Virus record (IMG/VR): IMGVR_UViG_3300024264_000002
Span: 1-41,017 of that record
Direction: 5' to 3' (one strand)
DNA: 41,017 bases
Source: a virus
The notes below the pieces were generated by a model. It was not told the DNA's origin. It did not search any database and saw nothing but the letters and a program-made list of their open reading frames with translations. How positions within the stretch are numbered: position 1 is the stretch's first letter; every line of letters starts with the position of its first letter. Positions 1-41,017 of the stretch are shown in pieces. The translations under genes and the position numbers were made by a program.

Positions 1-379
1 TATTTACTAGGCATTTTACTACTTCAAGGTTATTATTTATAACAGCAATGTGTAAAGGTGTAATCCCATCTTCGCACCTAGTATTAACATCCGCTCCTTT
101 ATTTACTAGGCATTTTACTACTTCAAGCTTTCCCTCCCGAGCAGCATAATGTAAAGGTGTAATCCCATCTTCGCACCTAGTATTAACATCCGCTCCTTTA
201 TTTACTAGGCATTTTACTACTTCAAGCTTTCCCTCCTGAGCAGCATAATGTAAAGGTGTAATCCCATATTTGTTCCTAGCATTAACATCCGCTCCTTTAT
301 TTACTAGGCATTTTACTACTTCAAGGTTATTATTCATTACTGCATTAAATAATTTTTTGTTTAATTCGTGTTTACTCAT
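1..379 (-). CDS. Ankyrin-repeat protein, N-terminal part only (start codon 377-379; ORF runs off the left edge)
   Basis: The reverse strand from ATG at 379 reads [59 protein letters not shown]... This is 33-aa ANK modules encoded by 99-bp repeats. The start region is near-identical to the ANK gene at 39970..40782. It is absent from the ORF track only because there is no stop inside the window. Confidence 0.8.
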   Translation of the reverse strand, partial: [126 protein letters not shown]

Positions 380-528
380 TTTATTCCTCTATATTCCACT
401 CAGCTTTATTTCTAGCTGAATACGTTAATTTTAATGATCCACCGCTATACATAGCAATATGTTTTACCAGCTTAAAAATGTCTACATTATCATCAGCATA
501 AACTAAATAATTCAGTAGAGTCTCTTTT

Positions 529-3146: not shown

Positions 3147-3647
3147 CTACACCCCCAAACACGGTTGACTATAAAAGCTACGATACAAATCTTGCTGCGC
3201 TTCGCGCTCTCTCCTCTCGTAGTATTCAATTTCTTGCTGGAGTGCTACTGGGTCATATTCAGAAATATCCCAATCAACGCCTGCTCTATAAGCTTCTTCA
3301 AGCAACAACTCATAGTCCGCAACCTCATCTATAAGGTCGAACCAGTTTAAATTATTTTTGTCTATTGGGATTCTGTATTGAGAAACTTTATCTAAAAGCT
3401 CTTTGCCTCTATCGCCTAGTAGGAATTTGTTATCCGCTCTTTCAGATATATTCTTTAGGGTATTCGTGACGTCTTTTAAAGGTAGTCCAAAATCAGTTCT
3501 AACTTCATCTACAACGCCAACATTAGGCATATTAACTAGTGACATTATTCTCTCGCAGTCTATTTGTGATATCATTCTATCACAAATATTACATACTACG
3601 CCACTTATTCCTTTACTTATTAATGCTTTTTTGCTACTATATGACAT
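3147..3647 (-). CDS. Hypothetical protein, first gene of the recombination operon
   Basis: 166-aa ORF with a strong SD (GAGGAGG) 7 nt upstream of the ATG on the minus strand. No motif recognised. Confidence 0.55.
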   Translation of the reverse strand: MSYSSKKALISKGISGVVCNICDRMISQIDCERIMSLVNMPNVGVVDEVRTDFGLPLKDVTNTLKNISERADNKFLLGDRGKELLDKVSQYRIPIDKNNLNWFDLIDEVADYELLLEEAYRAGVDWDISEYDPVALQQEIEYYERREREAQQDLYRSFYSQPCLGV

Positions 3648-3716: not shown

Positions 3717-3830
3717 TCATCTGTTCGAGCAGATGAGCCTTCGATGGAGCTAGCACTTGGATGTAGCTAGCCCCAAAGATAACTTAAGAAATTTAGGCAT
3801 CTAAGCTTTCGGTTTAGGTGCCTTTTTTTT
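3717..3830 (+). ncRNA. Candidate structured plus-strand RNA (two hairpins plus an intrinsic terminator); promoter not identified
   Basis: Hairpin TCATCTG/CAGATGA (3717-3736). Hairpin GGAGCTAGC/GCTAGCCCC (3746-3774, one mismatch). Terminator 3795-3830. All flanking genes are on the minus strand. Confidence 0.3.
3795..3830 (+). terminator. Rho-independent terminator, plus-strand orientation
   Basis: 10-12 bp stem AGGCATCTAA(GC)/(G.)TTAGGTGCCT with one G-U pair, followed by a run of T to 3830. On the minus strand the stem is followed only by AAATTTCTT. Confidence 0.6.
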
Positions 3831-3909: not shown

Positions 3910-4419
3910 TTAATTATTCCAATTCTCAAGATACTTTTTTACTAGCCGCCTATCTCGTACAATCAAGATATTCTCAGCGTTTCGGGCATCTGCGGACTTA
4001 GTAAAGTTAAAAGAGCCAGTGAGCACTTTTTTCTCATCAATAATCATTATTTTGTTATGAGCTATGCCAGAAACTTTGGCTTTATATATTTTTATTCCTA
4101 CTTCTTCTAATTCTCTTATTAAGGGAAGTTTCTTTTTTGAGAAGTTGCTACTATCAAGGATTATCTCAACATTAACATTACGTTTTGTAGCTTCTTTTAG
4201 TGAGTTAATAATATCTGGATGGGTAAAGCCATACGCTTGGACGTATATACTCTTTTTTGCTTGGTCTATATGACTTACTATGAATGAACCGCATTGATTG
4301 TGCGGAGGAGTGAAGCATACTGAAAATTTAGACTCAGATGCTAAGGACGAAGTGGTAAGAAATAATAATATTAGAAAAAACTTGTTAATAGATCTCATTA
4401 ATCGTCGTAATGTCCCCAC
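3910..4419 (-). CDS. Secreted single-HKD phospholipase D-family protein (Nuc-like endonuclease / PLD)
   Basis: The N-terminal signal-like segment is FFLILLFLTTSSLA. The HKD motif is HNKIMIIDEKKVLTGSFNFTKSA (HxK(x)4D(x)6GSxN). Size and layout resemble plasmid Nuc and small bacterial PLDs. Confidence 0.85.
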   Translation of the reverse strand: MGTLRRLMRSINKFFLILLFLTTSSLASESKFSVCFTPPHNQCGSFIVSHIDQAKKSIYVQAYGFTHPDIINSLKEATKRNVNVEIILDSSNFSKKKLPLIRELEEVGIKIYKAKVSGIAHNKIMIIDEKKVLTGSFNFTKSADARNAENILIVRDRRLVKKYLENWNN

Positions 4420-4658
4420 ATACTTAATATTTTAATCACTTTTTTTTCTTCATTTACTTCATAGACTAATCTATGTTGAATATTAATTCTAATAGATCTT
4501 TTTCCTCTCAGGTCACGATTAAGCTCTTTAGAATTTAAAGGGTGGGGTTCTTTTGTTAACAAATCTCTTGTTTTTTTAGCTTTATTGTAAAGCCCAGCAG
4601 ATTTTAAATTACTAACATGTTTTAGTGCTTTTTTAGTTAGTATTATTTTATATATCAT
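4398..4658 (-). CDS. YoeB/Txe-RelE-superfamily toxin
   Basis: 86 aa, with C-terminal ...RINIQHRLVYEVNEEKKVIKILSMWGHYDD (HRLVY...HY signature). It overlaps the upstream YefM-like gene. Confidence 0.75.
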   Translation of the reverse strand: MIYKIILTKKALKHVSNLKSAGLYNKAKKTRDLLTKEPHPLNSKELNRDLRGKRSIRINIQHRLVYEVNEEKKVIKILSMWGHYDD

Positions 4659-4893
4659 CTGTCCACTCTACACATTCTTCTATAGGCTCTTTGCTAGCCT
4701 CAAGAATTCTTTCAGCCCAACCAGGAACAGAATATATATGCATAGTTTCTAACAAAGATTCGTATTCTTCTTTAGACAACATTACTGCTTCATTACGCTT
4801 ACCTTTAATATATACAGGCTCATGGTGGCTATTAACATCATCCACTAAAGTAAAGAACTTATTTCTAGCTTGGCTTGTTGTGTATATTTGCAT
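4648..4893 (-). CDS. Phd/YefM-family antitoxin
   Basis: MQIYTTSQARNKFFTLVDDVNSHHEPVYIKGKRNEAVMLSKEEYESLLET is the classic YefM N-terminal fold signature. It lies upstream of, and overlaps, the toxin gene. Confidence 0.8.
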   Translation of the reverse strand: MQIYTTSQARNKFFTLVDDVNSHHEPVYIKGKRNEAVMLSKEEYESLLETMHIYSVPGWAERILEASKEPIEECVEWTDDI

Positions 4894-6196: not shown

Positions 6197-6206
6197 AAAT
6201 TGCGAG
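6197..6206 (+). promoter_or_regulatory. AAATTGCGAG box, copy 1 (5 nt upstream of ATG 6212)
   Basis: Exact 10-mer; see findings. Confidence 0.6.
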
Positions 6207-6211
6207 AAATA

Positions 6212-7045
6212 ATGACAAAATATTTTTACTTCTTATTAACCTTAACCTTTAGAAGAATAAGGGACCATAGCTTTTATTTTTTAATCAAAACTAAACTACT
6301 TAAACAATATATGACATATTTAATTTATTTTGTAAAGCAAAAAATCCCAAAATCGGCATATTACGTAACTTGTGAAACTCATATATACTATTACGTTATA
6401 AAAATTTCATGGAGAAATAATTTGCTTGAATTAAATGCAATTGAATTATACGCACTACAAGATCATTTTCAAGATGAAGGGCTGTGTGAAGCTGGTGCTG
6501 AATGGTTATCTAGATTATCTGTTCATATAGGCCCTTACAAATCATGCGTTACTATAAAACAAATGATGAGGTATACAAAAAAATCTCGTACTCGTTGTTA
6601 TGAATATTTCAGGGATTCATTAAAATTAAAGTTAATCAATAAAAGTAGAACTCCTTCAATAGGTAATCATAATTGTATATCGATACAAATACCTATAAGG
6701 TTTTTATCACCTAAGCAAAAAGAAAACCCCTTCCTCACTTTCTACGGCAAACCAGTAGAAGAAATAGTTACAAACTATGATGGTAAAATCATTAAAGAAA
6801 TTAAACTACTAGATGTATACAGCACAGATGGACATATCCATTTTAAAGAATACTGGATACTCAAAGAAGTAGCTACAGAATCAGAATCAGAATCAGAATC
6901 AGAATCAGAATCAGAATCAGAATCAGAATCAGAATCAGAATCAGAATCAGACTCTATTTGTTTTAAAGCTGTACCTTATACATCTAAATCAAAACATTTT
7001 TTACTCAAAACACTTCAAATTAAACCTTTAGGAGTACACGCATGA
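6212..7045 (+). CDS. Hypothetical early protein with a C-terminal (Glu-Ser)12 tract
   Basis: The ORF track starts at 6104. That N-terminus looks like translated AT-rich leader. I placed the start at ATG 6212, right after the conserved box, but the true start could be further downstream. Confidence 0.4.
   Translation: MTKYFYFLLTLTFRRIRDHSFYFLIKTKLLKQYMTYLIYFVKQKIPKSAYYVTCETHIYYYVIKISWRNNLLELNAIELYALQDHFQDEGLCEAGAEWLSRLSVHIGPYKSCVTIKQMMRYTKKSRTRCYEYFRDSLKLKLINKSRTPSIGNHNCISIQIPIRFLSPKQKENPFLTFYGKPVEEIVTNYDGKIIKEIKLLDVYSTDGHIHFKEYWILKEVATESESESESESESESESESESESESDSICFKAVPYTSKSKHFLLKTLQIKPLGVHA
6878..6949 (+). repeat. Perfect hexanucleotide microsatellite (GAATCA)12 inside a CDS
   Basis: 72 bp of uninterrupted gaatca units encoding ESESES... 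Confidence 0.95.
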
Positions 7046-7660: not shown

Positions 7661-7958
7661 AATAGAAATAGAAAACGAATATAAAAGAATTTTTAACAAT
7701 CTACTACATATAGCTTTAGAAGATACATCTCTAATAGGTCTATTCGGTTGTTCTTTACAAGGTGCAGCTGTTGATTTAATGGGAGCTATAAGCAAAAGGG
7801 ATAGAGAAAAACTCGAAAACAATCAGAGAAAATTAACCTCTTTTAGTAAAGATTTTGAATTAGCTTTTAAAGAGTTCAATAACCTGACTCAATTGCTAAC
7901 TGAGGCACTTAATAACGAAATATCTTTGAAAGAAGGTAGTGAGGTGCCTCATGCTTAG
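7653..7958 (+). CDS. Hypothetical early protein
   Basis: 101-aa ORF that overlaps its neighbours. Confidence 0.45.
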   Translation: MNKIEIENEYKRIFNNLLHIALEDTSLIGLFGCSLQGAAVDLMGAISKRDREKLENNQRKLTSFSKDFELAFKEFNNLTQLLTEALNNEISLKEGSEVPHA

Positions 7959-9543
7959 TCAACAAAGACACCTAACCAATAAAGCAGAACACCCAAATAA
8001 TACTAGACCTAGGAGTAATCTAATGAAGGCCAGAACCAACATTGTTAAATTTAAACACTCTTATAAAAAGAGAGAAAATATAAAACCTTATGCCAAATAC
8101 GATTTGGATTGGACAAATATAACACGAGCGAACGATAATAGCAAGATGCTATCTGAAGCCTCCGTTATGTTATGCTCCAGGTTAGAATATCAATTGCATA
8201 GAAATAATTATAGACCTGTATTTTTAACGTCTGATTGGTTTGCTCAAGCTACTAAGAAAAAGCGTCATCAGAATGCTAACCTACGTGGTCAAGTATCTCA
8301 TATATATAATTTTAAATGGCATCCAAAAGTTAGAGTGGAGGAAGTTTTATTATCGAATGTTTTTGAAGTTTGGTCTACAACAGAAGCACCTAAAATATTA
8401 AATTTAGAAGATGTAGAAACAACCCAAAAAAAGCCAAATCTTAAGGCGGTAGAAGTACCAAAAAATTCTACAACCATGGAGAAAAAATTCTACGAGGGTG
8501 GAGAAAAAATTCTACAGCCAATAGTAGATAAAGGAATAATAAATCCTCCTAAAGAGGATTTATTTATTCCGAATAATGAAAAATTAAAAATAAAAAAAAT
8601 TGATTCTAATAAAAATTCTAAAACTTCACAGCAAGAAACACCGCAACAAAAATCATCTTTGGGTGATGATTTTGTTGCTAATACGGAAACCTTGGAAAGA
8701 GATTGGGAGCTTGACTGTGCCGATACAGTTCTAACTGAACCACCTGAATACCTTTTAGCAGAAGCTGGGTTAGCAAAGGGAGAATCAGACTACTATGGAC
8801 ATCTTCCACCTGATACACCTGAATCCGTTGAAACACCTATTGCCTCGGACTACGTCCTCGGAGATACAACACCTAAAACAGAAGCAAAAAAGCGGACCGC
8901 TACCCCCCCAATTTTAACAAATCAAGCTAAAGAGGAAAAACCAATGGCTATACCACAAACACAGTTAGAACCAAGGCAGCAACTCAACTATCAGATTCTA
9001 AAAACATTTCCAACAGCAACGGCAGCAGAATTACAGCAAAAGCTGGACATCAAGCCAATAGCACCAAACAAAATAGGGCTGGCATTTAAGCAGGGATTAG
9101 AACTAAAAAACAATGAAAAACAACAGCTTAGGGAGACTATACAGCTGGTCTACGGAAAAAGCGTAAAAATGATTCTCATCAAGCCAGGCAAGCCTGAAAT
9201 GGCAACGAAAGAAGATACCGAAAAACGTAGTGAGCCTAAGCCGTTAACACCCGAAGAAAGCAAATGGGAAGCTGTTAAAAATGATGTATTAAATGCCTTG
9301 TTTTTAGACCAAAAAGATCTAATGAAAATCAACCTTGATCAAGTGGAGGTGATAGATTTAGAGGGTAGAAAACTAAAGCTACAAGCAACTTATAGCATTT
9401 GTCATAAAATGGATAATAAACAATCGTTGATAGAATCCATGGCGAAGAAACATGATGTAGATATTGAAGTGAAAAATATAACGGATAACGATACGCTATA
9501 TTTTCCATGGATAAAACCTAACTTAGATTTTTTGGGGGAGTAG
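7951..9543 (+). CDS. Large hypothetical early protein (candidate replication or initiation function; unrecognised)
   Basis: I placed the start at ATG 7951, with SD GAGGTG 6 nt upstream. The track's GTG at 7939 is less likely. The N-terminus is basic, the middle is Pro/Glu/Thr-rich, and no motif is recognised. Confidence 0.5.
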   Translation: MLSQQRHLTNKAEHPNNTRPRSNLMKARTNIVKFKHSYKKRENIKPYAKYDLDWTNITRANDNSKMLSEASVMLCSRLEYQLHRNNYRPVFLTSDWFAQATKKKRHQNANLRGQVSHIYNFKWHPKVRVEEVLLSNVFEVWSTTEAPKILNLEDVETTQKKPNLKAVEVPKNSTTMEKKFYEGGEKILQPIVDKGIINPPKEDLFIPNNEKLKIKKIDSNKNSKTSQQETPQQKSSLGDDFVANTETLERDWELDCADTVLTEPPEYLLAEAGLAKGESDYYGHLPPDTPESVETPIASDYVLGDTTPKTEAKKRTATPPILTNQAKEEKPMAIPQTQLEPRQQLNYQILKTFPTATAAELQQKLDIKPIAPNKIGLAFKQGLELKNNEKQQLRETIQLVYGKSVKMILIKPGKPEMATKEDTEKRSEPKPLTPEESKWEAVKNDVLNALFLDQKDLMKINLDQVEVIDLEGRKLKLQATYSICHKMDNKQSLIESMAKKHDVDIEVKNITDNDTLYFPWIKPNLDFLGE

Positions 9544-9544
9544 T

Positions 9545-9700
9545 ATGCAAATTGAAAATTTAGATGAAATAGATAGAGTGCTTTTAATTGAATTACAGAA
9601 TTTACCGTTTGAGGAATTTATATTTTTTCAAGCGTTTTACGAAACTAACTCATTCAGTAAAGTTGCGACAGGTGATTCATCTATAAAGACGAATACTTGA
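9545..9700 (+). CDS. Small hypothetical protein (51 aa)
   Basis: ATG at 9545 is preceded by GGGGGAG. The ORF ends at TGA 9698-9700 and is below the ORF-track cut-off. Confidence 0.4.
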   Translation: MQIENLDEIDRVLLIELQNLPFEEFIFFQAFYETNSFSKVATGDSSIKTNT

Positions 9701-9768
9701 CTAATTTAGTAAGCTATTGATACTTTGCTAAATTTGTTGTACAATACAAAAAAAGATATATTTTGAGT

Positions 9769-9796
9769 TTGACATATTGAATAATTTCAATATAAA
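9769..9796 (+). promoter_or_regulatory. Near-consensus sigma70-type promoter
   Basis: TTGACA (9769-9774), a 16-nt spacer, then TATAAA (9791-9796). Confidence 0.6.
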
Positions 9797-9802
9797 ATCA
9801 GA

Positions 9803-9920
9803 ACTGAAAAACATTCTCCGTTGTCTGTTTTCGTCTGTTAAATCTGCATTCTCGCAAAAGATTAGATTAACAAAACTGTTGGTTGAGCCGTTGCACCATG
9901 CGACGGCTTTCTTACTTTCT
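9803..9920 (+). ncRNA. Candidate trans-acting small RNA (about 115 nt) carrying an anti-box loop
   Basis: It is bounded by the promoter above and the terminator at 9886-9920. There is no credible plus-strand ORF. A weak stem AATCT (9841-9845) / AGATT (9859-9863) exposes the loop GCATTCTCGCAAA. CTCGCAA (9851-9857) is the reverse complement of the TTGCGAG box core. Confidence 0.45.
9886..9920 (+). terminator. Rho-independent terminator
   Basis: Stem AGCCGTTGC (9886-9894) / GCGACGGCT (9900-9908) with one G-U pair, loop ACCAT, then TTCTTACTTTCT. Confidence 0.6.
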
Positions 9921-10303
9921 AAACTGTTATTAAATGAATAATTCATTTTTTAAAGATATAATTTAGAACTCATAAGAAACTTATCACAACTCCGACTTTT
10001 TTGCAAATACATAAACCCTCCACAAGTTACTCTATTTGCTCTTGTACGTGTCTTATATCAAGTCTCAGGACTATTCTATTATCTACTTGATAGTCTAATT
10101 GTTATCTGCTAATTTTTAAACACGGTGTTTAAGCGCACTAGTTAAATTTAAATTCCTAGTTATTTTATGCTAGGAGCCTATTATTATAAGTGCTTCTGGC
10201 ATGAAGTATAATAGAGGTCGTTTAACTGACTTGCTTAAGCTCCTAGTTCCATAACAATTAATTAGCTAGGTGTTTATTATGCAAAATTACAAAGGAAAAA
10301 TAA

Positions 10304-10765
10304 ATGTCAGGAAGTGTAAACAAAGTAACCCTGATAGGGAATCTAGGAAAAGACCCAGAAATCAGATCGACTAGTGATGGCAAAGAAATAGCTAATCTTA
10401 GTATAGCTACTACTGAAAGCTGGAAAGATAAATCTAGTGGTGAAAAAAAAGATAAGACCGAGTGGCATAGAGTTATATGTTTTAATGAAGGTTTAGTTAA
10501 AGTAATAAAAAATTATGTTAAGAAAGGTACAAAACTTTATCTTGAAGGTCAGCTACAGACTAAAAAGTGGATAGATAAGGATAATCAGGAAAAATATACC
10601 ACTGAGGTTATACTAAAAGGCTACAGTTCAAACTTAGTATTACTTGGTTCAAATAGTAAGGAAGCTTCATTAGAACAAAAGGATAATGGACGTTTTAAGA
10701 TAGGAGAAAGCAAACAGGCTCAAGAACCTACAACCGAAATTGAAGATGACGAAATTTTATTTTAG
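10304..10765 (+). CDS. ssb: Single-stranded DNA-binding protein
   Basis: N-terminal OB-fold signature VNKVTLIGNLGKDPE...TEWHRVICF. A Gln/Glu-rich linker precedes the acidic C-terminal tip DDEILF. Confidence 0.9.
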   Translation: MSGSVNKVTLIGNLGKDPEIRSTSDGKEIANLSIATTESWKDKSSGEKKDKTEWHRVICFNEGLVKVIKNYVKKGTKLYLEGQLQTKKWIDKDNQEKYTTEVILKGYSSNLVLLGSNSKEASLEQKDNGRFKIGESKQAQEPTTEIEDDEILF

Positions 10766-11134: not shown

Positions 11135-11345
11135 GTTAATATTTTAATATTTAAACTAAAAATAATGCGATATTTTAGCAACAATTTCCATAAGATAAAT
11201 TATGGTGTATTTTTTTGATAGAATCTTTTTAAGAAATTTTCTTAGATTTTAATTTTTTGAGGATGGAGATTGCAGAAGAAAGGAAAAATATAAAATATAC
11301 GCTTTAGGCACAATCTCCTCGTCAAGGGTAGCATACAATACTAAC

Positions 11346-11384: not shown

Positions 11385-11394
11385 AAATTGCGAT
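11385..11394 (+). promoter_or_regulatory. Box variant AAATTGCGAT (8 nt upstream of ATG 11403)
   Basis: 9/10 match to the box. It starts 10 nt after the -10 hexamer. Confidence 0.5.
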
Positions 11395-15859: not shown

Positions 15860-15869
15860 AAATTGCGAG
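15860..15869 (+). promoter_or_regulatory. AAATTGCGAG box, copy 2 (7 nt upstream of ATG 15877)
   Basis: Exact 10-mer in the 22-nt gap between fibre segments 1 and 2. Confidence 0.6.
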
Positions 15870-18400: not shown

Positions 18401-20217
18401 AAAAACAAACAATAGGTAAGCAAAAAGCTCTCAAAGATTTACAGGATTATTATGAGTATGCTAATAATTCTGCGGTAAGACAGCAATGGCTTAACCAATA
18501 TTTGATAAATCTCAGCTTTTATCGTGGTAATCAGTGGCTTGACCCTAATATACTAAAAGATATGCAGGATATAGGTGCAACTCCATATACCTACAATAAT
18601 ATAGAGCCACTAGTAAATACATTTGTTAGTCTGCAGATTCGTTCTAGTAAAAGAGTGGGATATGAAGCAAGTTCTGATAATCCAGAACATGTTAAATTAG
18701 CAGAATATCTTAAGCATTTAGCATATGAAATTCAGACTCAAAATGATTATGTATATTTTTCATCACAAAAATTCACATCGAGTTTAATAGGTGGTATAGG
18801 TTGGTCCTATTTTACCTATAAAAATGATAAATTTTGTTATGAGTATATAGATCCAATAGAAGTCCTTTGGGACCCAGATGATAGAAGTGCAAGATTAGAT
18901 GATTCAAACTTTGTATGTAGAGTTCATTATGTGCAAGCATTAAAGCTAAAAAACCAATATCCAGAACATGCAAAAGAATTTGAACAAATGGTAGAGGAAA
19001 ACTCTACTAATCCATCAGATTATACGGCATATAACACAGTATCTGAGAGTTCTTTTTGGAATCAGTTTGGCAGTGGTAGTAACACAGTCGGCAATCCACA
19101 AGATGATGGAGCATGGGTTCGTGGACGTTCTATAAAAATAGTTGAAGTATTTTATAAAAAATCAGCTAAATATTATGAAACAACAGTTATATTTCCAGAA
19201 GATTCTACAGGCAATGCCATTCCTAACGAACAATTATTTAATACATTCGATGAATCAATTGCTAAAGATAAGTCAGTTAATGGAGAAATAGTAATAAAAG
19301 ATGGAACGCAAATATGGCATGGAGTGTTTTGTGATAATCTTCTCATAGAAAATAATCCTATAGCAGAGCAAATACCAAACCAAAAATATTTACCATTAAC
19401 ACCAGTAGTATTAAAACGCGACTATCAAGGTTTACCTTATGGTGTAATAGATAATTTAATATCACCACAAAAGACGCATAACTTTTTGTGGTCAACAACT
19501 CTGCATTATCTAGATGCTAAAACAATTATAGCAAGTGATGAGCAAGTAGACAAAGACAAATTGCGAGAGTTCTTAAAAGACGAGATGCGTAGTAAAAATG
19601 GTGTAGCATTTGTTAAAAATCCTCGTGAGTTGCAAGTTTTAGATCATGAGAAAAATTTAAATCATCGTATGAACCTAATACAGGCAAATTACAAAGAATT
19701 TGAAACTCAAACAGGATTGTACGATGAACTAAAGGGAGAAAAGACTAATGCCATATCAGGAGTAGCTATTGCTCAAAGAGCTAACAACTCAATGAACGCA
19801 CAAAATGCATTAATTCTTGCCTATGAAAATATGATTATATCCGAAGGTAAGTTGATGCTTGATACAATAAAAGGATTAAACAACTTCCAGTATAGTTTTA
19901 AGTTTTTTGCAAATGGTAGAAATCAATCAGCTACGTTGGACGATTCAATTTCACTACTAAATTTTGAAGTGTATCCAGATGTATCACCTAATTTCTCATC
20001 AACTATAGAAGAAGAAAAAGCGAGGTTTGCAGAATTAATGAATAGTCCTAATCCTGCATTACTGATGAGTTCTCCGTTATTCTTACGTGAGCTTGGATTT
20101 AGAGAAAATATAGCCTATGAATTATCAGAAGAATATTTGCGTATAATGGGGTTAATGCAACCACAAGAGCAACAAACTGCTGAACAAAATGAACAAGAAA
20201 ATGAGGTCACACAATGA
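18397..20217 (+). CDS. Portal protein (putative)
   Basis: 606 aa, positioned immediately upstream of the scaffold and capsid genes. N-terminal ...SFYRGNQWLD... resembles the portal FY.G.QW motif. The C-terminal tail is acidic and Gln-rich. Confidence 0.6.
   Translation: MKKQTIGKQKALKDLQDYYEYANNSAVRQQWLNQYLINLSFYRGNQWLDPNILKDMQDIGATPYTYNNIEPLVNTFVSLQIRSSKRVGYEASSDNPEHVKLAEYLKHLAYEIQTQNDYVYFSSQKFTSSLIGGIGWSYFTYKNDKFCYEYIDPIEVLWDPDDRSARLDDSNFVCRVHYVQALKLKNQYPEHAKEFEQMVEENSTNPSDYTAYNTVSESSFWNQFGSGSNTVGNPQDDGAWVRGRSIKIVEVFYKKSAKYYETTVIFPEDSTGNAIPNEQLFNTFDESIAKDKSVNGEIVIKDGTQIWHGVFCDNLLIENNPIAEQIPNQKYLPLTPVVLKRDYQGLPYGVIDNLISPQKTHNFLWSTTLHYLDAKTIIASDEQVDKDKLREFLKDEMRSKNGVAFVKNPRELQVLDHEKNLNHRMNLIQANYKEFETQTGLYDELKGEKTNAISGVAIAQRANNSMNAQNALILAYENMIISEGKLMLDTIKGLNNFQYSFKFFANGRNQSATLDDSISLLNFEVYPDVSPNFSSTIEEEKARFAELMNSPNPALLMSSPLFLRELGFRENIAYELSEEYLRIMGLMQPQEQQTAEQNEQENEVTQ
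19558..19567 (+). promoter_or_regulatory. AAATTGCGAG box, copy 3 (internal to the portal gene)
   Basis: Exact 10-mer in sense orientation, but not next to an annotated start. Confidence 0.4.
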
Positions 20218-29001: not shown

Positions 29002-29011
29002 AAATTGCGAG
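29002..29011 (+). promoter_or_regulatory. AAATTGCGAG box, copy 4 (10 nt upstream of ATG 29022)
   Basis: Exact 10-mer. Confidence 0.6.
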
Positions 29012-29021
29012 GTATAATGAT

Positions 29022-30191
29022 ATGTTTCCAATATTAGCAGCAGTAGCTGCAACAGTAGGAGGTTTTTTAGCAAGTGGTGGTGATGATCCGCCAGATTTAG
29101 TTACTCAAGCACCCAACCCTGTAGCAGATAAATTTCCACCAATTGATTTTGCCAGTATTTTTGATGAAATAAGCAAAGATAAGCTTGATATTATAAAAGG
29201 TTTAGATGGTAAAATTAATCTAAAGTTTAGTAATGATAATGGACGTATTGATTTGGATTCGCCAGTTCAATCAAGAGCGGTAAACACAAGACTTCCAGCT
29301 ATTAATCGTTTAAGCGAAAGGGCATCGGAGGTTGTTGCATTAAGTCAGGCAATGACAAGGTTAGGAAGTTCTATAGAACAAATGGAAAATACTAGTCCTT
29401 ACCTGATCCAGCAGAATCAAGGATTGATTCAGAGTTTTCGTCAAGCGTCAGAGCGGGCAATAGATAGAGGCTTTGACCATAGGCAGTATGCTATAGATCA
29501 GAAGCTTGCTAAATACGGACTAGACAATAGTTCAACAGCTTTTGGGGTACAGGTTGCTCTTGCTCGTGAAAAAGCTAATGCATACGGGGATTTAGAGCTA
29601 AAACAAGCAGAGCTTGCTCAAGGATTAAAACAACAATCTTTAGCTAATTTACATCAAAGGGGCGAATTATTAGGTCAGAATGCAGGTATTGAGCTTAATA
29701 GATTTGCAACAGAATCACAAAATCAACTAGCCAATGAAGAGCTAGTACAAAAACAAGTATTTGCAGAAAGACAGCTTGAAAGTCAAAATGAAGACCGAAG
29801 GTTAGCTACTGAATTTGGTAATAAAAAACTCGTAGATGCACGTCGCCAGCGCATGGCAGAGCTTGGATTAAATGCTTTTAATAATAGCAATGTTCAAGCA
29901 TTGAGTGCAAGAGGTATTGATAACACCGCTATTACGCAAGCAAATAATGATCAACTGCAAAGATATGATAGAGAAAGTAATCCTATGCAAGAAATTGGGC
30001 ATACTTTATTAGGAGCTTCAGTGGGTAATTTGACTGGTGGAGGATTTTCAGGAGGGAGTGGTTTTAATACAAATCCTTGGAATAACCCTGATAGAGGAAC
30101 TAATCCCATGAGTTTTGGTACAAGTAATTATAGTCCAACTAGTAGTAGATTAGTAGGTTCAAGAAGTGGAGGAATGAGATGGGTGAATTAA
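29022..30191 (+). CDS. Putative internal virion/ejection protein with an N-terminal TM segment
   Basis: The N-terminus MFPILAAVAATVGGFLASGG is hydrophobic. The middle is Gln-rich coiled-coil and the C-terminus is Gly/Ser/Asn-rich. This is a positional inference. Confidence 0.35.
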   Translation: MFPILAAVAATVGGFLASGGDDPPDLVTQAPNPVADKFPPIDFASIFDEISKDKLDIIKGLDGKINLKFSNDNGRIDLDSPVQSRAVNTRLPAINRLSERASEVVALSQAMTRLGSSIEQMENTSPYLIQQNQGLIQSFRQASERAIDRGFDHRQYAIDQKLAKYGLDNSSTAFGVQVALAREKANAYGDLELKQAELAQGLKQQSLANLHQRGELLGQNAGIELNRFATESQNQLANEELVQKQVFAERQLESQNEDRRLATEFGNKKLVDARRQRMAELGLNAFNNSNVQALSARGIDNTAITQANNDQLQRYDRESNPMQEIGHTLLGASVGNLTGGGFSGGSGFNTNPWNNPDRGTNPMSFGTSNYSPTSSRLVGSRSGGMRWVN

Positions 30192-33950: not shown

Positions 33951-34155
33951 TAATAACAAAAATTACATCAATGATTTTATTAAAAAATGGTATTAAATGT
34001 TGATGTTCGTTTAGTGCTTTTTGAAGCGTAGGAGCAGTAAAAAAATACAAAATCAGTATTTTAATAAGCACCTTGATATCTATCTTACGACCAGTCCATT
34101 TTCTGGAAGCAACATATAGTAAAATATAGCCAATAATTTTCGCTAAGATATACAC
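33928..34155 (-). CDS. Small hydrophobic protein (GTG start)
   Basis: 75 aa with 2-3 hydrophobic segments. It is supported mainly by the exact box 6 nt upstream of its GTG start. Confidence 0.35.
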   Translation of the reverse strand: MYILAKIIGYILLYVASRKWTGRKIDIKVLIKILILYFFTAPTLQKALNEHQHLIPFFNKIIDVIFVIISMVQVH

Positions 34156-34161
34156 CTAATT

Positions 34162-34171
34162 CTCGCAATTT
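34162..34171 (-). promoter_or_regulatory. AAATTGCGAG box, copy 5 (minus strand, 6 nt upstream of GTG 34155)
   Basis: The plus strand reads CTCGCAATTT. Confidence 0.55.
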
Positions 34172-34271: not shown

Positions 34272-34904
34272 ATGAAAAAAATAACAGCACTTGATATAGC
34301 CAATTATTTTCTTATTCTTTTAGATAGAGATGAAGGAGATTCTATCACTCATCTAAAATTGCAAAAATTGATATATTTTGCCCAAGGTATATCTATATCG
34401 CTAACAGATAAACTATTATTTGATGAGCCTATGATGGCATTACAACATGGTCCTGTTAGTAGTAGTGTTTATAATATTTTCAAAGTGTTTGGCAATAACA
34501 CTATCCCACAGCCGCCAGAAATGGATTTTGATATATATGATCAATCTGTAAAAAACTTGATATATAAAGTTTATAATATTTATGGAGAACATACTGCTTC
34601 TTATTTACGTAATCTCAGTCATGAACATTCTTCTTGGATAAAAGCATTTAACACTCAAGAGAGGACTATAAATTATAAAGAAGTAAAAAATGATTTTATT
34701 AAAAATAATCACTCTATTGAAAATTTAGATGTTTCAGATACAGCTAAGCAATCTATAATTGATGCCGAAGATAGATGGTGGATGAGTTACGATTGCGGCG
34801 TCCCTTCTGAAAACATCACTGAAAGGTTAGCTAGAAATATGGAGCTAATGCAGCAAGACAAACAAGCTTTTATTGATTCTTGTGTTACAATAGAAGGTTT
34901 TTAA
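34272..34904 (+). CDS. Panacea-domain (DUF4065, SocA/GepA-like) antitoxin-type protein
   Basis: N-terminal ITALDIANYFLILL....ITHLKLQKLIYFAQG...HGPV is the DUF4065 signature as I recall it. Its stop overlaps the toxin ATG (TAATG). Confidence 0.7.
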   Translation: MKKITALDIANYFLILLDRDEGDSITHLKLQKLIYFAQGISISLTDKLLFDEPMMALQHGPVSSSVYNIFKVFGNNTIPQPPEMDFDIYDQSVKNLIYKVYNIYGEHTASYLRNLSHEHSSWIKAFNTQERTINYKEVKNDFIKNNHSIENLDVSDTAKQSIIDAEDRWWMSYDCGVPSENITERLARNMELMQQDKQAFIDSCVTIEGF

Positions 34905-38338: not shown

Positions 38339-38543
38339 TATTTCTCGCAGTCAAAATAAACACTTCTATATGCAAGATTATACCATATCTAGTAAGTATT
38401 ACCAAGAGTTTTAACTATATGTAATGTTTTTGCTAGTATATCTAGAAAGCCACAATAAAAGTTCATCTAAAGGAATATTCTCATCACTGTTTTTAAGACA
38501 CTTAATCAGTGTATCTCTTTTAATGAGTGTTTTTTTGTCCATA

Positions 38544-39059
38544 TTAATCTACCAAACCACCATTTTTACCTTTTAATGTACGTCTGATTGCTCCTTTTAC
38601 ACAAGCATCCTTATAACGCTGTGTTCCGCAATAAATACGGCAGAAATAAAATGCCTTTTTATTACTTATATTAAAGATTTTTGCTATTTCCTTATGTATA
38701 CCAATAGCGAGTGGTCGCGCTGGTTTATCTTTTGGAGGAAAGGCTTTTGGGTTAGATTCTTGAAGTTGTAGCAATATTTTATAATATTGGTTTATACTAA
38801 TCGGAGTTTCTAAGAACTTTTCGTATTCTGTTTTTGGCTTTAATGCCTTTAGTCTAGCCTCTTCTTTTGCCTTAGCTTCTGCTTCCTTTTTAGCTTGATA
38901 TTTGTTTAAAGCATTATTAGCTGATACCTTACCGCCTTTGCCAATAAATATTTCCGAACGCTTAGGCTCTGGTGGCTTTGGTTTAGGTATTCTTGCTTGT
39001 AACTTAAGTAATGCTTCGCCTGACAGCTTAAGCTTTAGTGTAGGTTTCTGTTCAGTCAT
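38544..39059 (-). CDS. FinO/ProQ-domain RNA chaperone
   Basis: N-terminal MTEQKPTLKLKL parallels F-plasmid FinO (MTEQKRPVLTLK). A Lys-rich helix follows. The C-terminal ARPLAIGIHKEIAKIF...KKAFYFCRIYCGTQRYKDACVKGAIRRTLKG parallels FinO PRLLACGIRDVL...[29 protein letters not shown]. Confidence 0.75.
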   Translation of the reverse strand: MTEQKPTLKLKLSGEALLKLQARIPKPKPPEPKRSEIFIGKGGKVSANNALNKYQAKKEAEAKAKEEARLKALKPKTEYEKFLETPISINQYYKILLQLQESNPKAFPPKDKPARPLAIGIHKEIAKIFNISNKKAFYFCRIYCGTQRYKDACVKGAIRRTLKGKNGGLVD

Positions 39060-39071
39060 GTAGGTATAATG

Positions 39072-39260
39072 TTATGAGTTTTTCTTTATAACTTTACGTA
39101 AAGATGTAATGATTAGTTCAGTTATAGTAATATCGTTCTCTAATGCGTATCTCTTTATTTCCTTATGTAAGGATTTATCTATATTAATATTCATTTTCAT
39201 TTTCTCTACTTTGTCTATTTTTACTTTTGCAGATGGTCTGCCTGATTTTAATAAACTCAT
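39072..39260 (-). CDS. ParG-like ribbon-helix-helix partition/centromere-binding protein
   Basis: 62 aa. A flexible basic N-terminus precedes the RHH-like NINIDKSLHKEIKRYALENDITITELI. The ATGA overlap joins it to the parA stop. Confidence 0.55.
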   Translation of the reverse strand: MSLLKSGRPSAKVKIDKVEKMKMNINIDKSLHKEIKRYALENDITITELIITSLRKVIKKNS

Positions 39261-39883
39261 ATTATCTGCTTTAACTCTTCTACTATATTTATGATTTCTT
39301 CTATTGCATCAATGTTTTTTGGAGCATCAAATATACTTTTGCCTTGTGCTGCCGATTTTGGATATACTACGCGTTGCGATGTACTAGCTTGCATTGTTGG
39401 TAATTCATAGCCATTTAACGCCTCTAATACTTCATTACTCAGCGTTGTATTTGCTATCTTCCTACTAATACAGAAATACGCTTTAGGTTTTCCATCTGCT
39501 ATAGATTGTCGTTGCTTAATTATATCTACTAAATCAGAAGACGCCCAAATATCATATGGGGAAGGTTGTACAGGTATAATAATTAAGTCAGAACATTTAA
39601 TAGAAGATATTGCCATTTCTGCTAATTGTGGAGCACCATCGATAATTATCCAATCAAATTGACCTGCTATTTTTTGTATATTCTTATCTAAATTTGGTCT
39701 ATCCAGTCCTATTACTGGCAAATCACTATCACCCGATGCGTGCCAATCTCGAGCTGAACCTTGAGGGTCAGAATCTATCAATACGACTTTCTCATTATCA
39801 AGATGGAGCTTTGTAGCTATATTAGTAGCTAATGTTGTCTTACCAACACCGCCTTTTTGGTTGAGTATTGCTATTACATGCAT
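39257..39883 (-). CDS. parA: ParA-family partition ATPase (small type Ib)
   Basis: Deviant Walker A NQKGGVGKTTLA and the IIDGAP motif, at 208 aa. Confidence 0.9.
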   Translation of the reverse strand: MHVIAILNQKGGVGKTTLATNIATKLHLDNEKVVLIDSDPQGSARDWHASGDSDLPVIGLDRPNLDKNIQKIAGQFDWIIIDGAPQLAEMAISSIKCSDLIIIPVQPSPYDIWASSDLVDIIKQRQSIADGKPKAYFCISRKIANTTLSNEVLEALNGYELPTMQASTSQRVVYPKSAAQGKSIFDAPKNIDAIEEIINIVEELKQII

Positions 39884-39969: not shown

Positions 39970-40782
39970 TTATTCATTATTCCCCCTAGCATCAACATCC
40001 GCTCCTTTATTTACTAGGCATTTTACTACTTCAAGCTTTCCCTCCCGAGCAGCATAATGTAAAGGTGTAGTCCCATTTTCGTTCCTAGCATTAACATCCG
40101 CTCCTTGCCCTACTAGGCATTTTACTACTTCAAGGTTATTATTTATAACAGCAATGTGTAAAGGTGTAATCCCATCTTCGTCCCTAGCATTAACATCCGC
40201 TCCTTTATTTACTAGGCATTTTACTACTTCAAACTTTCCCTCCTGAGCAGCATAATGTAAAGGTGTAATCCTATCTTGGTCCCTAGCATCAACATCCGCT
40301 CCTTGCCCTACTAGGCATTTTACTACTTCAAAGTCTTCCTTCCGAGCAGCAATGTATAAAGGTGTAATCCCATCTTCGTCCCTAGCATTAACATCCGCTC
40401 CTTTATTTACTAGGCATTTTACTACTTCAAGCTTTCCCTCCTGAGCAGCATAATGTAAAGGTGTAATCCTATCTTGGTCCCTAGCATCAACATCCGCTCC
40501 TTGCCCTACTAGGCATTTTACTACTTCAAGCTTTCCCTCCCGAGCAGCAATGTGTAAAGGTGTAATCCCATATTCGTCCCTAGCATTAACATTCGCTCCT
40601 TGCTCTACTAGGCATTTTACTACTTCAAGCTTTCCCTCCCGAGCAGCAATGTGTAAAGGTGTAATCCCATCTTCGTCCCTAGCATTAACATCCGCTCCTT
40701 GCTCTACTAGGCATTTTACTACTTCAAGGTTATTATTCATTACTGCATTAAATAATTTTTTGTTTAATTCGTGTTTACTCAT
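39970..40782 (-). CDS. Ankyrin-repeat protein (7 full modules plus 1 degenerate N-terminal module)
   Basis: Tandem 33-aa units [33 protein letters not shown] are encoded by near-identical 99-bp repeats. Confidence 0.9.
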   Translation of the reverse strand: [270 protein letters not shown]

Positions 40783-40866
40783 TTTATTCCTCTATATTCC
40801 ATTCAGCTTTATTTCTAGTTGAATACGTTAATTTTAATGATCCACCGCTATACATAGCAAATTGAT

Positions 40867-41017
40867 TTATTCATTATTCCCCCTAGCATCAACATCCGCT
40901 CCTTTATTTACTAGGCATTTTACTACTTCAAGGTTATTATTTATAACAGCAATGTGTAAAGGTGTAATCCCATCTTCGCACCTAGTATTAACATCCGCTC
41001 CTTTATTTACTAGGCAT
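40867..41017 (-). CDS. Ankyrin-repeat protein, C-terminal part only (continues beyond the right edge; probably the same gene as 1..379 if the molecule is circular)
   Basis: The stop codon at 40867-40869 sits in the same ATTGATTTATTCATTATTCCCCC context as the stop of the gene at 39970. Positions 40905-41017 are identical to 1-113. Confidence 0.7.
   Translation of the reverse strand, partial: [49 protein letters not shown]

Follow-up and report, generated by a model that had tools for sequence, protein, structure and literature searches.

The 41,017-bp viral contig IMGVR_UViG_3300024264_000002 (33.8% G+C), analysed in its entirety and referred to below as the window, carries at positions 9769–9920 of its plus strand a promoter and an intrinsic terminator with a short predicted non-coding RNA between them. 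A loop of this RNA is complementary to a sequence, here called the yTGCGAG box, that lies just upstream of the start codons of seven genes. The safest statement of our results is that 9769–9920 forms a non-coding unit, lineage-specific and moron-like, with a hairpin that is at the same time the terminator of the rightward early operon. We consider it rather probable that the unit is transcribed, and we propose, tentatively, that its RNA pairs with the boxes and acts on them as an accessory repressor. The box itself is the better supported and arguably the more interesting result: a conserved element, different from the Shine-Dalgarno (SD) sequence, at operon-leading genes of a divergent phage family.

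The unit opens with a sigma-70-type promoter (9769–9798, plus strand) in which TTGACA (9769–9774) is followed either by TATAAA at 9791–9796, with a spacer of 16, or by TAAAAT at 9793–9798, with a spacer of 18. The latter combination scores 11 of 12 consensus matches in a promoter scan, and the predicted transcription start lies at about 9803–9806. Only seven sites reach this score in 40 kb searched on both strands (80 kb of strand), the terS promoter among them. Another promoter-like site, weaker and identified by consensus match only, is found at 9717–9745 on the same strand (TTGATA-17-TACAAT, 10 of 12 matches). About 90 nt past the promoter stands the terminator (9885–9920, plus strand), whose hairpin (9885–9909; 11-bp stem with six G-C pairs, CCA loop) is followed by UUUCUUACUUUCU. 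This arrangement of a G+C-rich hairpin and a U-rich tract on the transcribed strand is that of an intrinsic terminator, and the hairpin ranks first among the terminator-like sites of the window. It would also stop read-through from the rightward early/replication operon. No plus-strand open reading frame (ORF) of at least 20 aa was found between promoter and terminator, and no credible minus-strand gene overlaps 9769–9920: the 72-aa minus-strand ORF at 9728–9946 looks spurious, because it has neither a box nor an SD sequence and its product is of low complexity. On the minus strand, this region folds no more stably than shuffled sequences do (z −0.5). Because promoters of such quality number only seven in 80 kb of strand, it is, by our own estimate, unlikely (about 0.01) that one of them and the top-ranked terminator should fall by chance about 90 nt apart on the same strand with no ORF between them. 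The promoter, terminator, stem, loop and absence of a plus-strand ORF are all as given in a preliminary description of this DNA, which had proposed a trans-acting small RNA (sRNA) here.

The predicted RNA (9803–9920, plus strand; about 112–118 nt, no ORF) has a minimum free energy (MFE) of −27.8 kcal/mol over 118 nt (z −2.5), a signal that stems from the terminator. Two weak stem-loops are predicted upstream of it. The first (9805–9833, plus strand) holds in its loop the anti-SD-like sequence CAUUCUCCG (9812–9820); most of the single bases in this loop are unpaired (P about 0.9–1.0), and opening 9812–9820 jointly would cost about 3.3 kcal/mol. The second (9836–9872, plus strand) displays the anti-box CUCGCAA (9851–9857), which forms part of the extended box complement AUUCUCGCAA at 9848–9857. 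Here the stem AATCT (9841–9845) / AGATT (9859–9863) displays the loop GCAUUCUCGCAAA; the MFE fold places CGCAAA in the apical loop above a weak closing stem of 3 bp (UCU/AGA), and opening the anti-box seed would cost about 2 kcal/mol. Comparison with the 4227 families of Rfam gave no match at the gathering score across the window, and at E ≤ 10 only chance-level matches to four unrelated families within 9500–10350.

The motif to which the loop is complementary proved to be real and over-represented at the ribosome-binding sites of several genes, in support of the preliminary description. The sequence AAATTGCGAG is found five times exactly in the window, against about 0.1 expected (our own estimate from base composition). 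Its conserved core TGCGAG, with a preceding pyrimidine and an A-rich flank, lies 4–10 nt before the start codons at 6212, 15877 and 29022 on the plus strand and at 34155, 38338 and 3545 on the minus strand, and a TGCGAT variant precedes terS (11403). All seven boxed genes are without a normal GGAG-type SD sequence and all appear to lead operons: the early-right and early-left operons, terS, two genes of the structural region, a lone minus-strand gene and the lysis cassette.

Relatives were gathered by way of the replication protein and by way of structural proteins; one of them, R1 (IMGVR_UViG_3300044513_004213), was reassembled in full from three loci and is near-complete at 34,375 bp. Four exact copies of the box stand at ribosome sites. 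The copy at 6197–6206 (plus strand) is 5 nt before ATG 6212, the first gene of the rightward early operon, and its position is kept in R1 and in the related loci L004, L007 and L002. The copy at 15860–15869 (plus strand) is 7 nt before ATG 15877. At 29002–29011 (plus strand) the copy follows a TATAAT by 14 nt and precedes ATG 29022 by 10 nt; it is conserved in R1, L028 and L026. The copy at 34162–34171 (minus strand), 6 nt before GTG 34155, is identical in R1. The terS variant AAATTGCGAT (11385–11394, plus strand) is placed 8 nt before ATG 11403 and 14 nt after a TTGTCA-17-TATAAT promoter that is invariant in four relatives. The earlier list of boxes was sound for these sites and missed two on the minus strand, both ACTGCGAG variants (core at 38344–38349 and 3552–3557): TGACTGCGAG (38344–38353), 5 nt before ATG 38338 of the first lysis-cassette gene and conserved in R1, L015 and L026, and AGACTGCGAG (3552–3561), 6 nt before ATG 3545 and conserved in L004, L015 and L002. 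It also included an exact AAATTGCGAG copy at 19558–19567 (plus strand). This copy lies inside the portal ORF and is conserved as coding sequence in R1 (same context, KLREF), and is for that reason probably not a functional box.

Two of these sites have surroundings of their own. At the early-right box, the relatives (R1 388–410, L007 7712–7730, L002 7162–7241, L004 5241–5262) have a mini-ORF of 2–22 codons after the box, or no ATG at all in L004, and their first long early-right gene starts 48–100 nt further on; the box at this one position is thus conserved independently of a long ORF. Directly upstream of the early-left box lies an operator-like palindrome, TTGTGATAgaatgaTATCACAA (about 3565–3590, minus strand), which is conserved in L004, L015 and L002 and stands downstream of a TTGACA-17-TATACT promoter (3880–3852, minus strand). 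It is a probable repressor site for the early-left operon.

Every relative examined had the box at homologous genes, its 5′ flank varying: AAAT or AAAC precedes TGCGAG in R1, L002, L004, L007/L015, L026 and L028, and CCT precedes it in the more distant relatives R2, L067 and L017 (about 43% protein identity). The distance from the upstream −10 hexamer to the box varies between 12 and 25 nt while that from the box to the start codon is constrained, which points to a function at the RNA level, at the ribosome site, rather than to a promoter element. Several other identities were considered and rejected. A sigma-54 −12 element would require GG at a spacing where none is found, and an extended −10 element (TGnGAGAAT) would require a last T that is not conserved. 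The −7 promoter motif of Bacteroidetes, considered because one capsid relative was binned as Flavobacteriales, does not agree with the GGAG-type SD sequences of most genes nor with the conserved TTGTCA-17-TATAAT at terS. A −10 element for leaderless mRNAs is at odds with the conserved TATAAT located 12–17 nt upstream of the box at terS and at 29022, and no sequence match was found to the boxA-like nut sites of lambda or rrn.

Contiguous complementarity between the RNA and these sites has the lengths given in the preliminary description: 10 nt at 34159–34168 (UUGCGAGAAU, the best match), 9 nt at 6200–6208, 8 nt plus a G-U pair at 19561, 7 nt at 15863 and at 29005, and 6 nt at the terS variant. 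Seed-local duplexes with the boxed ribosome-binding sites have energies of −7.7 to −18.5 kcal/mol, within the range of known sRNA-target pairs. We tested the complementarity against 56 curated translation-initiation regions (TIRs), using dinucleotide shuffles of the RNA. The anti-core is present in only 1.1–1.7% of dinucleotide shuffles of the RNA body, and the mean duplex energy with the seven boxed TIRs is −15.4 kcal/mol, compared with −12.2 ± 1.4 kcal/mol in shuffles (P 0.027). Within the element the anti-box is the best multi-target seed of the RNA, CTCGCA matching six TIRs and CTCGCAA four. Among the generic measures, an 8-mer seed hitting three TIRs is seen in 3.3% of shuffles (P 0.033). 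TTGCGAG is expected in the window about 2.3 times by chance; the sole copy outside the boxes is the antisense one in the RNA unit. We regard the box-specific statistics (P about 0.01–0.03) as suggestive.

Two groups of observations weigh against an RNA that acts on the boxes. The first concerns the unit itself. The longest perfect match of 10 nt was equalled or exceeded by 27% of the shuffles (P 0.27), the number of TIRs with a match of at least 7 nt was 16 for a shuffle mean of 14.4 (P 0.37), and 24% of the shuffled RNAs contained some 7-mer hitting at least four TIRs (P 0.24); the generic measures as a whole, the 8-mer seed apart, gave P 0.24–0.6. The boxed TIRs are not the top predicted targets either, being ranked 2, 5, 10, 25, 27, 30 and 40 of 56 by RNAduplex and 3, 5, 22, 23, 28, 53 and 55 by cofold. 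The body of the RNA without its terminator (9803–9884, 82 nt) shows no significant structure (z −0.14), the U tract of the terminator is interrupted, and the total of promoter-like sites in this AT-rich genome is not above that of shuffled sequences. The preliminary description had named equal complementarity in shuffled controls as grounds for giving up the proposal, and the controls gave a divided answer: they matched the generic measures (P 0.27, 0.37 and 0.24) and did not match the box-specific ones (P 0.011–0.027). A raw genome-wide RNAduplex scan was swamped by long AU-rich duplexes and was uninformative.

Several of these results would be expected if the hairpin did nothing more than end the early/replication operon, the promoter hexamers and the 7–10 nt of box complementarity being coincidences of an AT-rich genome and no trans-acting RNA being made. 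Promoter-like counts and generic complementarity at the level of shuffles, an unstructured body, a unit that is not conserved (see below) and a TTGCGAG count that chance could supply are all in keeping with this explanation, which we hold to be a real possibility short of a probable one. It must accept, however, that the lone chance copy landed in the right orientation in an 82-nt segment flanked by the best promoter and the best terminator of the window (0.002–0.02 by our own estimate), that the anti-box is carried in a loop and can be extended to match 10 nt of the box consensus, and that the boxed TIRs bind the RNA better than its shuffles. The good anatomy of the transcription unit, the mostly unpaired bases of the first loop and the fact that several non-boxed TIRs outscore the boxed ones would also suit a genuine sRNA directed elsewhere, acting on host mRNAs or sponging another RNA, for instance through its CAUUCUCCG loop, with an incidental match to the box. 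Phage morons often act on the host. No host target can be named, however, and it is the anti-box that provides the best multi-target seed within the element; we regard this alternative as unlikely.

The second group of observations comes from the relatives. Between its replication gene and ssb, the window has an insert of 760 bp that contains the unit and was found in this genome only. The insert consists of three parts: a 51-aa ORF at its start (9545–9700, plus strand; strong SD sequence GGGGGAG; called as a gene on L013), the RNA unit, and a spacer of 380 nt. The ORF has no homologue but itself among 5.8 billion proteins. No homologue of the RNA or of the insert was found in 69 related or pattern-matched loci (blastn and nhmmer, with tblastx for the insert), in the INPHARED phage and PLSDB plasmid collections, or in two exact-pattern scans of IMG/VR; scans of metagenomes and genomes that used the replication protein as an anchor likewise found nothing for RNA or insert. 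The 32 hits of a two-seed pattern were all due to chance, with unrelated GC content and no further similarity, and so was a 36-nt blastn match to L001 (E 2e-4), where L001 has no hairpin. R1 has the same T-type boxes (three AAATTGCGAG, one ACATTGCGAG) together with ParA and ProQ, yet no RNA, and no CTCGCA in any antisense non-coding context. More generally, R1, L002 and L007/L015 have ProQ and the boxes, and lack both the RNA and any anti-box. The promoter at 9769–9798 is conserved in no relative.

The box and the FinO gene are therefore family traits, and the RNA is not. The box predates the RNA and must have another primary reader, since R1 keeps its boxes in the absence of both RNA and anti-box; the RNA itself cannot be that reader. 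This does not sustain the earlier picture of a self-contained regulon of chaperone, sRNA and box setting the plasmid-versus-lytic state, in which two components are family-wide and the third is found in this genome only. Nor can the co-variation of loop and box across relatives, which had been put forward as a check, be demonstrated with present data: the boxes vary among relatives (AAAT, AAAC or ACCT before TGCGAG), but no relative has a cognate RNA and no loop-box covariation was seen. As no homologue was found, covariation provides no evidence for the RNA.

The same comparison describes the slot. R1 is colinear with the window from 6,000 through 41,017 and on to 1,750 (about 34 kb), with ParA and the FinO gene included. 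The relatives all have ssb after the replication gene, either directly, as in L004, or with one or two unrelated small ORFs in between, as in R1 and L007. A variable slot that holds other small genes in relatives fits an accessory cassette. Phage morons are promoter-cargo-terminator cassettes in variable slots. The unit resembles them in having its own promoter and terminator and in standing between conserved neighbours that are adjacent, or separated by other sequences, in colinear relatives which lack it; it differs in that its cargo is non-coding.

An orphan insert in a recombination-prone slot could also derive from foreign DNA that brought in a TGCGAG-boxed gene on the minus strand, in which case the anti-box would be a decayed ribosome-binding site on the wrong strand. 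The minus strand indeed reads TTGCGAGAATG, the box core followed by an ATG. The core is however 1 nt from this ATG, whereas every true box has a spacing of 4–10 nt; tcttt stands in place of the A-rich or CC 5′ flank; the ORF that begins at the ATG is three codons long; and no box region, in the window or in the relatives, shows extended similarity. Such an origin is highly improbable.

The remaining part of the insert, a unique non-coding spacer between the terminator and ssb (9921–10303, plus strand), has no homology in any locus. It contains long-range inverted repeats, including TAATTGTTAT/ATAACAATTA and CTAGGAGC/GCTCCTAG, and is significantly structured (fold z −3.0; none of 100 shuffles folds as well). 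This raises the question of whether transcription from 9769 enters ssb upon antitermination, the segment serving as a regulated 5′ leader or attenuator. A strong terminator does stand 380 nt upstream of ssb with only weak promoter-like sites between them, and in the relatives ssb is directly downstream of the replication gene, or follows a few small genes with no comparable gap, and is probably co-transcribed. Against a leader, no riboswitch or leader family was matched in Rfam, no alternative antiterminator pairing overlaps the terminator stem, and relatives expressing the same genes lack the element; we consider a leader very unlikely.

The tentatively proposed action of the RNA on the boxes can be compared with known systems in which a FinO-domain protein takes part. 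The minus-strand gene at 38544–39059 encodes a protein of 171 aa whose FinO/ProQ domain (residues 94–170), already recognised in the preliminary description, is genuine (PF04352; E 5.9e-11; 42.8 bits for a gathering cut-off of 27), and the gene is conserved in L002, L007 and R1. Proteins of the FinO family, which are present on plasmids and phages, bind the hairpins of terminators that have 3′ tails (PMC9977716). In silico, the unit offers this binding determinant, a G+C-rich terminator hairpin with a single-stranded 3′ U tail, the U tract being interrupted. The link between protein and RNA would rest on their co-occurrence and on the general preference of FinO domains for such hairpins, and a dependence of the RNA on the protein is distinctly doubtful.

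In RocR/RocC of Legionella pneumophila, as in the arrangement predicted here, a trans-encoded small RNA ends in a terminator hairpin, its seed is complementary to a sequence common to the ribosome-binding regions of several mRNAs, and a FinO-domain protein is encoded by the same genome. The present RNA has no sequence or Rfam similarity to RocR, however; its candidate targets are operon-leading genes of the element itself and not competence genes; and here the chaperone, a putative partner of the RNA, is conserved in relatives whereas the RNA is not. RocRp, a plasmid-borne mimic of RocR, indicates that mobile elements can add such RNAs (PMC9977716). In FinP/FinO of F-like plasmids and Inc/FopA of IncI plasmids, a FinO-domain protein stabilises a short stem-loop terminator RNA that occludes a ribosome-binding site (PMC9977716). 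The window likewise combines a FinO-domain protein on a mobile replicon with a short predicted stem-loop RNA ending in a terminator. In contrast, those RNAs are cis-antisense and fully complementary to one overlapping gene, whereas here there is no overlapping minus-strand gene and the complementarity, in trans, is limited to 6–10 nt.

Phage-plasmids and satellites offer a further comparison. The c4 RNA of P1/P7, CI of P4 and CA of N15 are RNA immunity factors: loops of these small RNAs base-pair with short boxes that are repeated in lytic-operon leaders, so that lytic functions are held off and immunity to related phages is conferred. Each is processed from the one operon that it controls, c4 blocking the icd ribosome-binding site and CI and CA causing premature termination. 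In P1/P7, loops and boxes covary between heteroimmune relatives. The preliminary description, which knew of no such regulon in a phage-plasmid, had overlooked this RNA-based immunity. The likeness lies in a small RNA loop facing short repeated boxes in operon leaders of a plasmid-prophage. The unit described here differs in having its own promoter and, as candidate targets, the ribosome-binding sites of about seven separate operons, and it gives no Rfam match (models of c4, CI and CA may not be among the 4227 families). The unit also lies at the 3′ end of the early-right operon, whose first gene carries the box at 6197.

The genome that carries the unit encodes phage functions (terS, terL, a P22-type portal, capsid and tail genes, lysozyme) and, for maintenance of the plasmid type, a replication-like protein of 530 aa (7951–9543), a ParA recognised by way of the relatives (39257–39883, adjoining the FinO/ProQ-domain gene) and a Phd/ParE toxin-antitoxin pair; scans of non-structural proteins detected no integrase. 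The contig is probably circular, since its ends overlap inside a 99-nt ankyrin-repeat array (1–47 is identical to 40905–40951). The ankyrin-repeat gene (39970–41017 continuing into 1–440, minus strand) spans these ends and is longer than the 270 aa listed. Probable circularity, phage genes, ParA, the toxin-antitoxin pair and the lack of a detected integrase make "phage-plasmid" a reasonable label, in agreement with the setting proposed in the preliminary description. The host uses SD sequences, since GGAG-type motifs are found on most genes of the window. The nearest relatives of the ssb DNA are on plasmids of Rickettsiales and Holosporales endosymbionts, and the related loci originate from coral and kelp-surface metagenomes (the relative L002/L003 from that of bull kelp surfaces). 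Among the accessory genes, one for an ankyrin protein with eight repeats and one for a patatin homologue hint at a host living within eukaryotic cells. Further cargo, accessory or related to defence, was noticed at 2651–2920, 3910–4419 and 4398–4893 on the minus strand and at 34272–34904 on the plus strand: a Tad2-like anti-Thoeris domain protein, a PLD-family nuclease, the Phd/ParE pair and a SocA/Panacea-domain protein. The first early-right gene (6212–7045) contains a perfect (CAGAAT)x12.7 hexanucleotide array (6876–6951), which could cause length variation.

Two further non-coding features were noticed. The region between the ssb operon and the terS promoter (11135–11345) is strongly conserved (aligned with L001 4120–4450, L004 9640–9960 and L007 13050–13360) and holds a hairpin (CCATAA..TTATGG) with a T7 run, an extended −10-like TGaTAGAAT, and an 8–9-bp inverted repeat flanking an AT-rich spacer of 45–75 nt. 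The arms of this repeat differ among relatives yet remain complementary (GGAGATTG/CAATCTCC, GAAGGTCAC/GTGACCTTC, GGAGATCG/CGATCTCC). The repeat may form a stem in RNA, or it may bind a protein, as a pac site would. The second-strongest terminator-like hairpin of the window (3795–3823, plus strand; 13 bp, T8 tail) is located in the gap between two minus-strand genes, and may be bidirectional or part of an unannotated plus-strand transcript.

Our preferred, tentative explanation for the unit can be stated as follows. The near-consensus promoter at 9769–9798 would drive an RNA of about 115 nt, ending at the strongest intrinsic terminator of the genome, which would halt the rightward early/replication operon as well. 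The weakly structured body would expose AUUCUCGCAA, able to pair over 6–10 bp with the yUGCGAG(AAU) that occupies the SD position of seven operon-leading genes. The RNA would then be an accessory antisense repressor occluding the boxed ribosome sites, including those of related incoming elements, possibly assisted by the FinO-domain protein of the element through binding to its terminator. If real, it would be a phage-encoded base-pairing sRNA that occludes ribosome sites, a kind already known, without being a member of the RocR/RocC or P1/P4/N15 families. The most far-reaching form of this proposal, and one that we think somewhat unlikely, is a device for RNA immunity or superinfection exclusion, in which a moron-borne sRNA, loaded by the FinO-domain chaperone of the element itself, masks the family-wide non-SD box of every major operon, early-left and early-right, packaging, structural and lysis, in this phage-plasmid and in its relatives. 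In that event one 10-nt seed would silence both the lytic programme of the resident and incoming related elements. Should the RNA prove real and act on the boxes, a mobile element would have gained, in a single small RNA, control over all its operons through their common ribosome-site motif. This would extend RNA-based immunity, as in P1 c4 and P4 CI, and FinO-assisted regulation, as in RocR/RocC, to a new group of phage-plasmids from marine host-associated samples.

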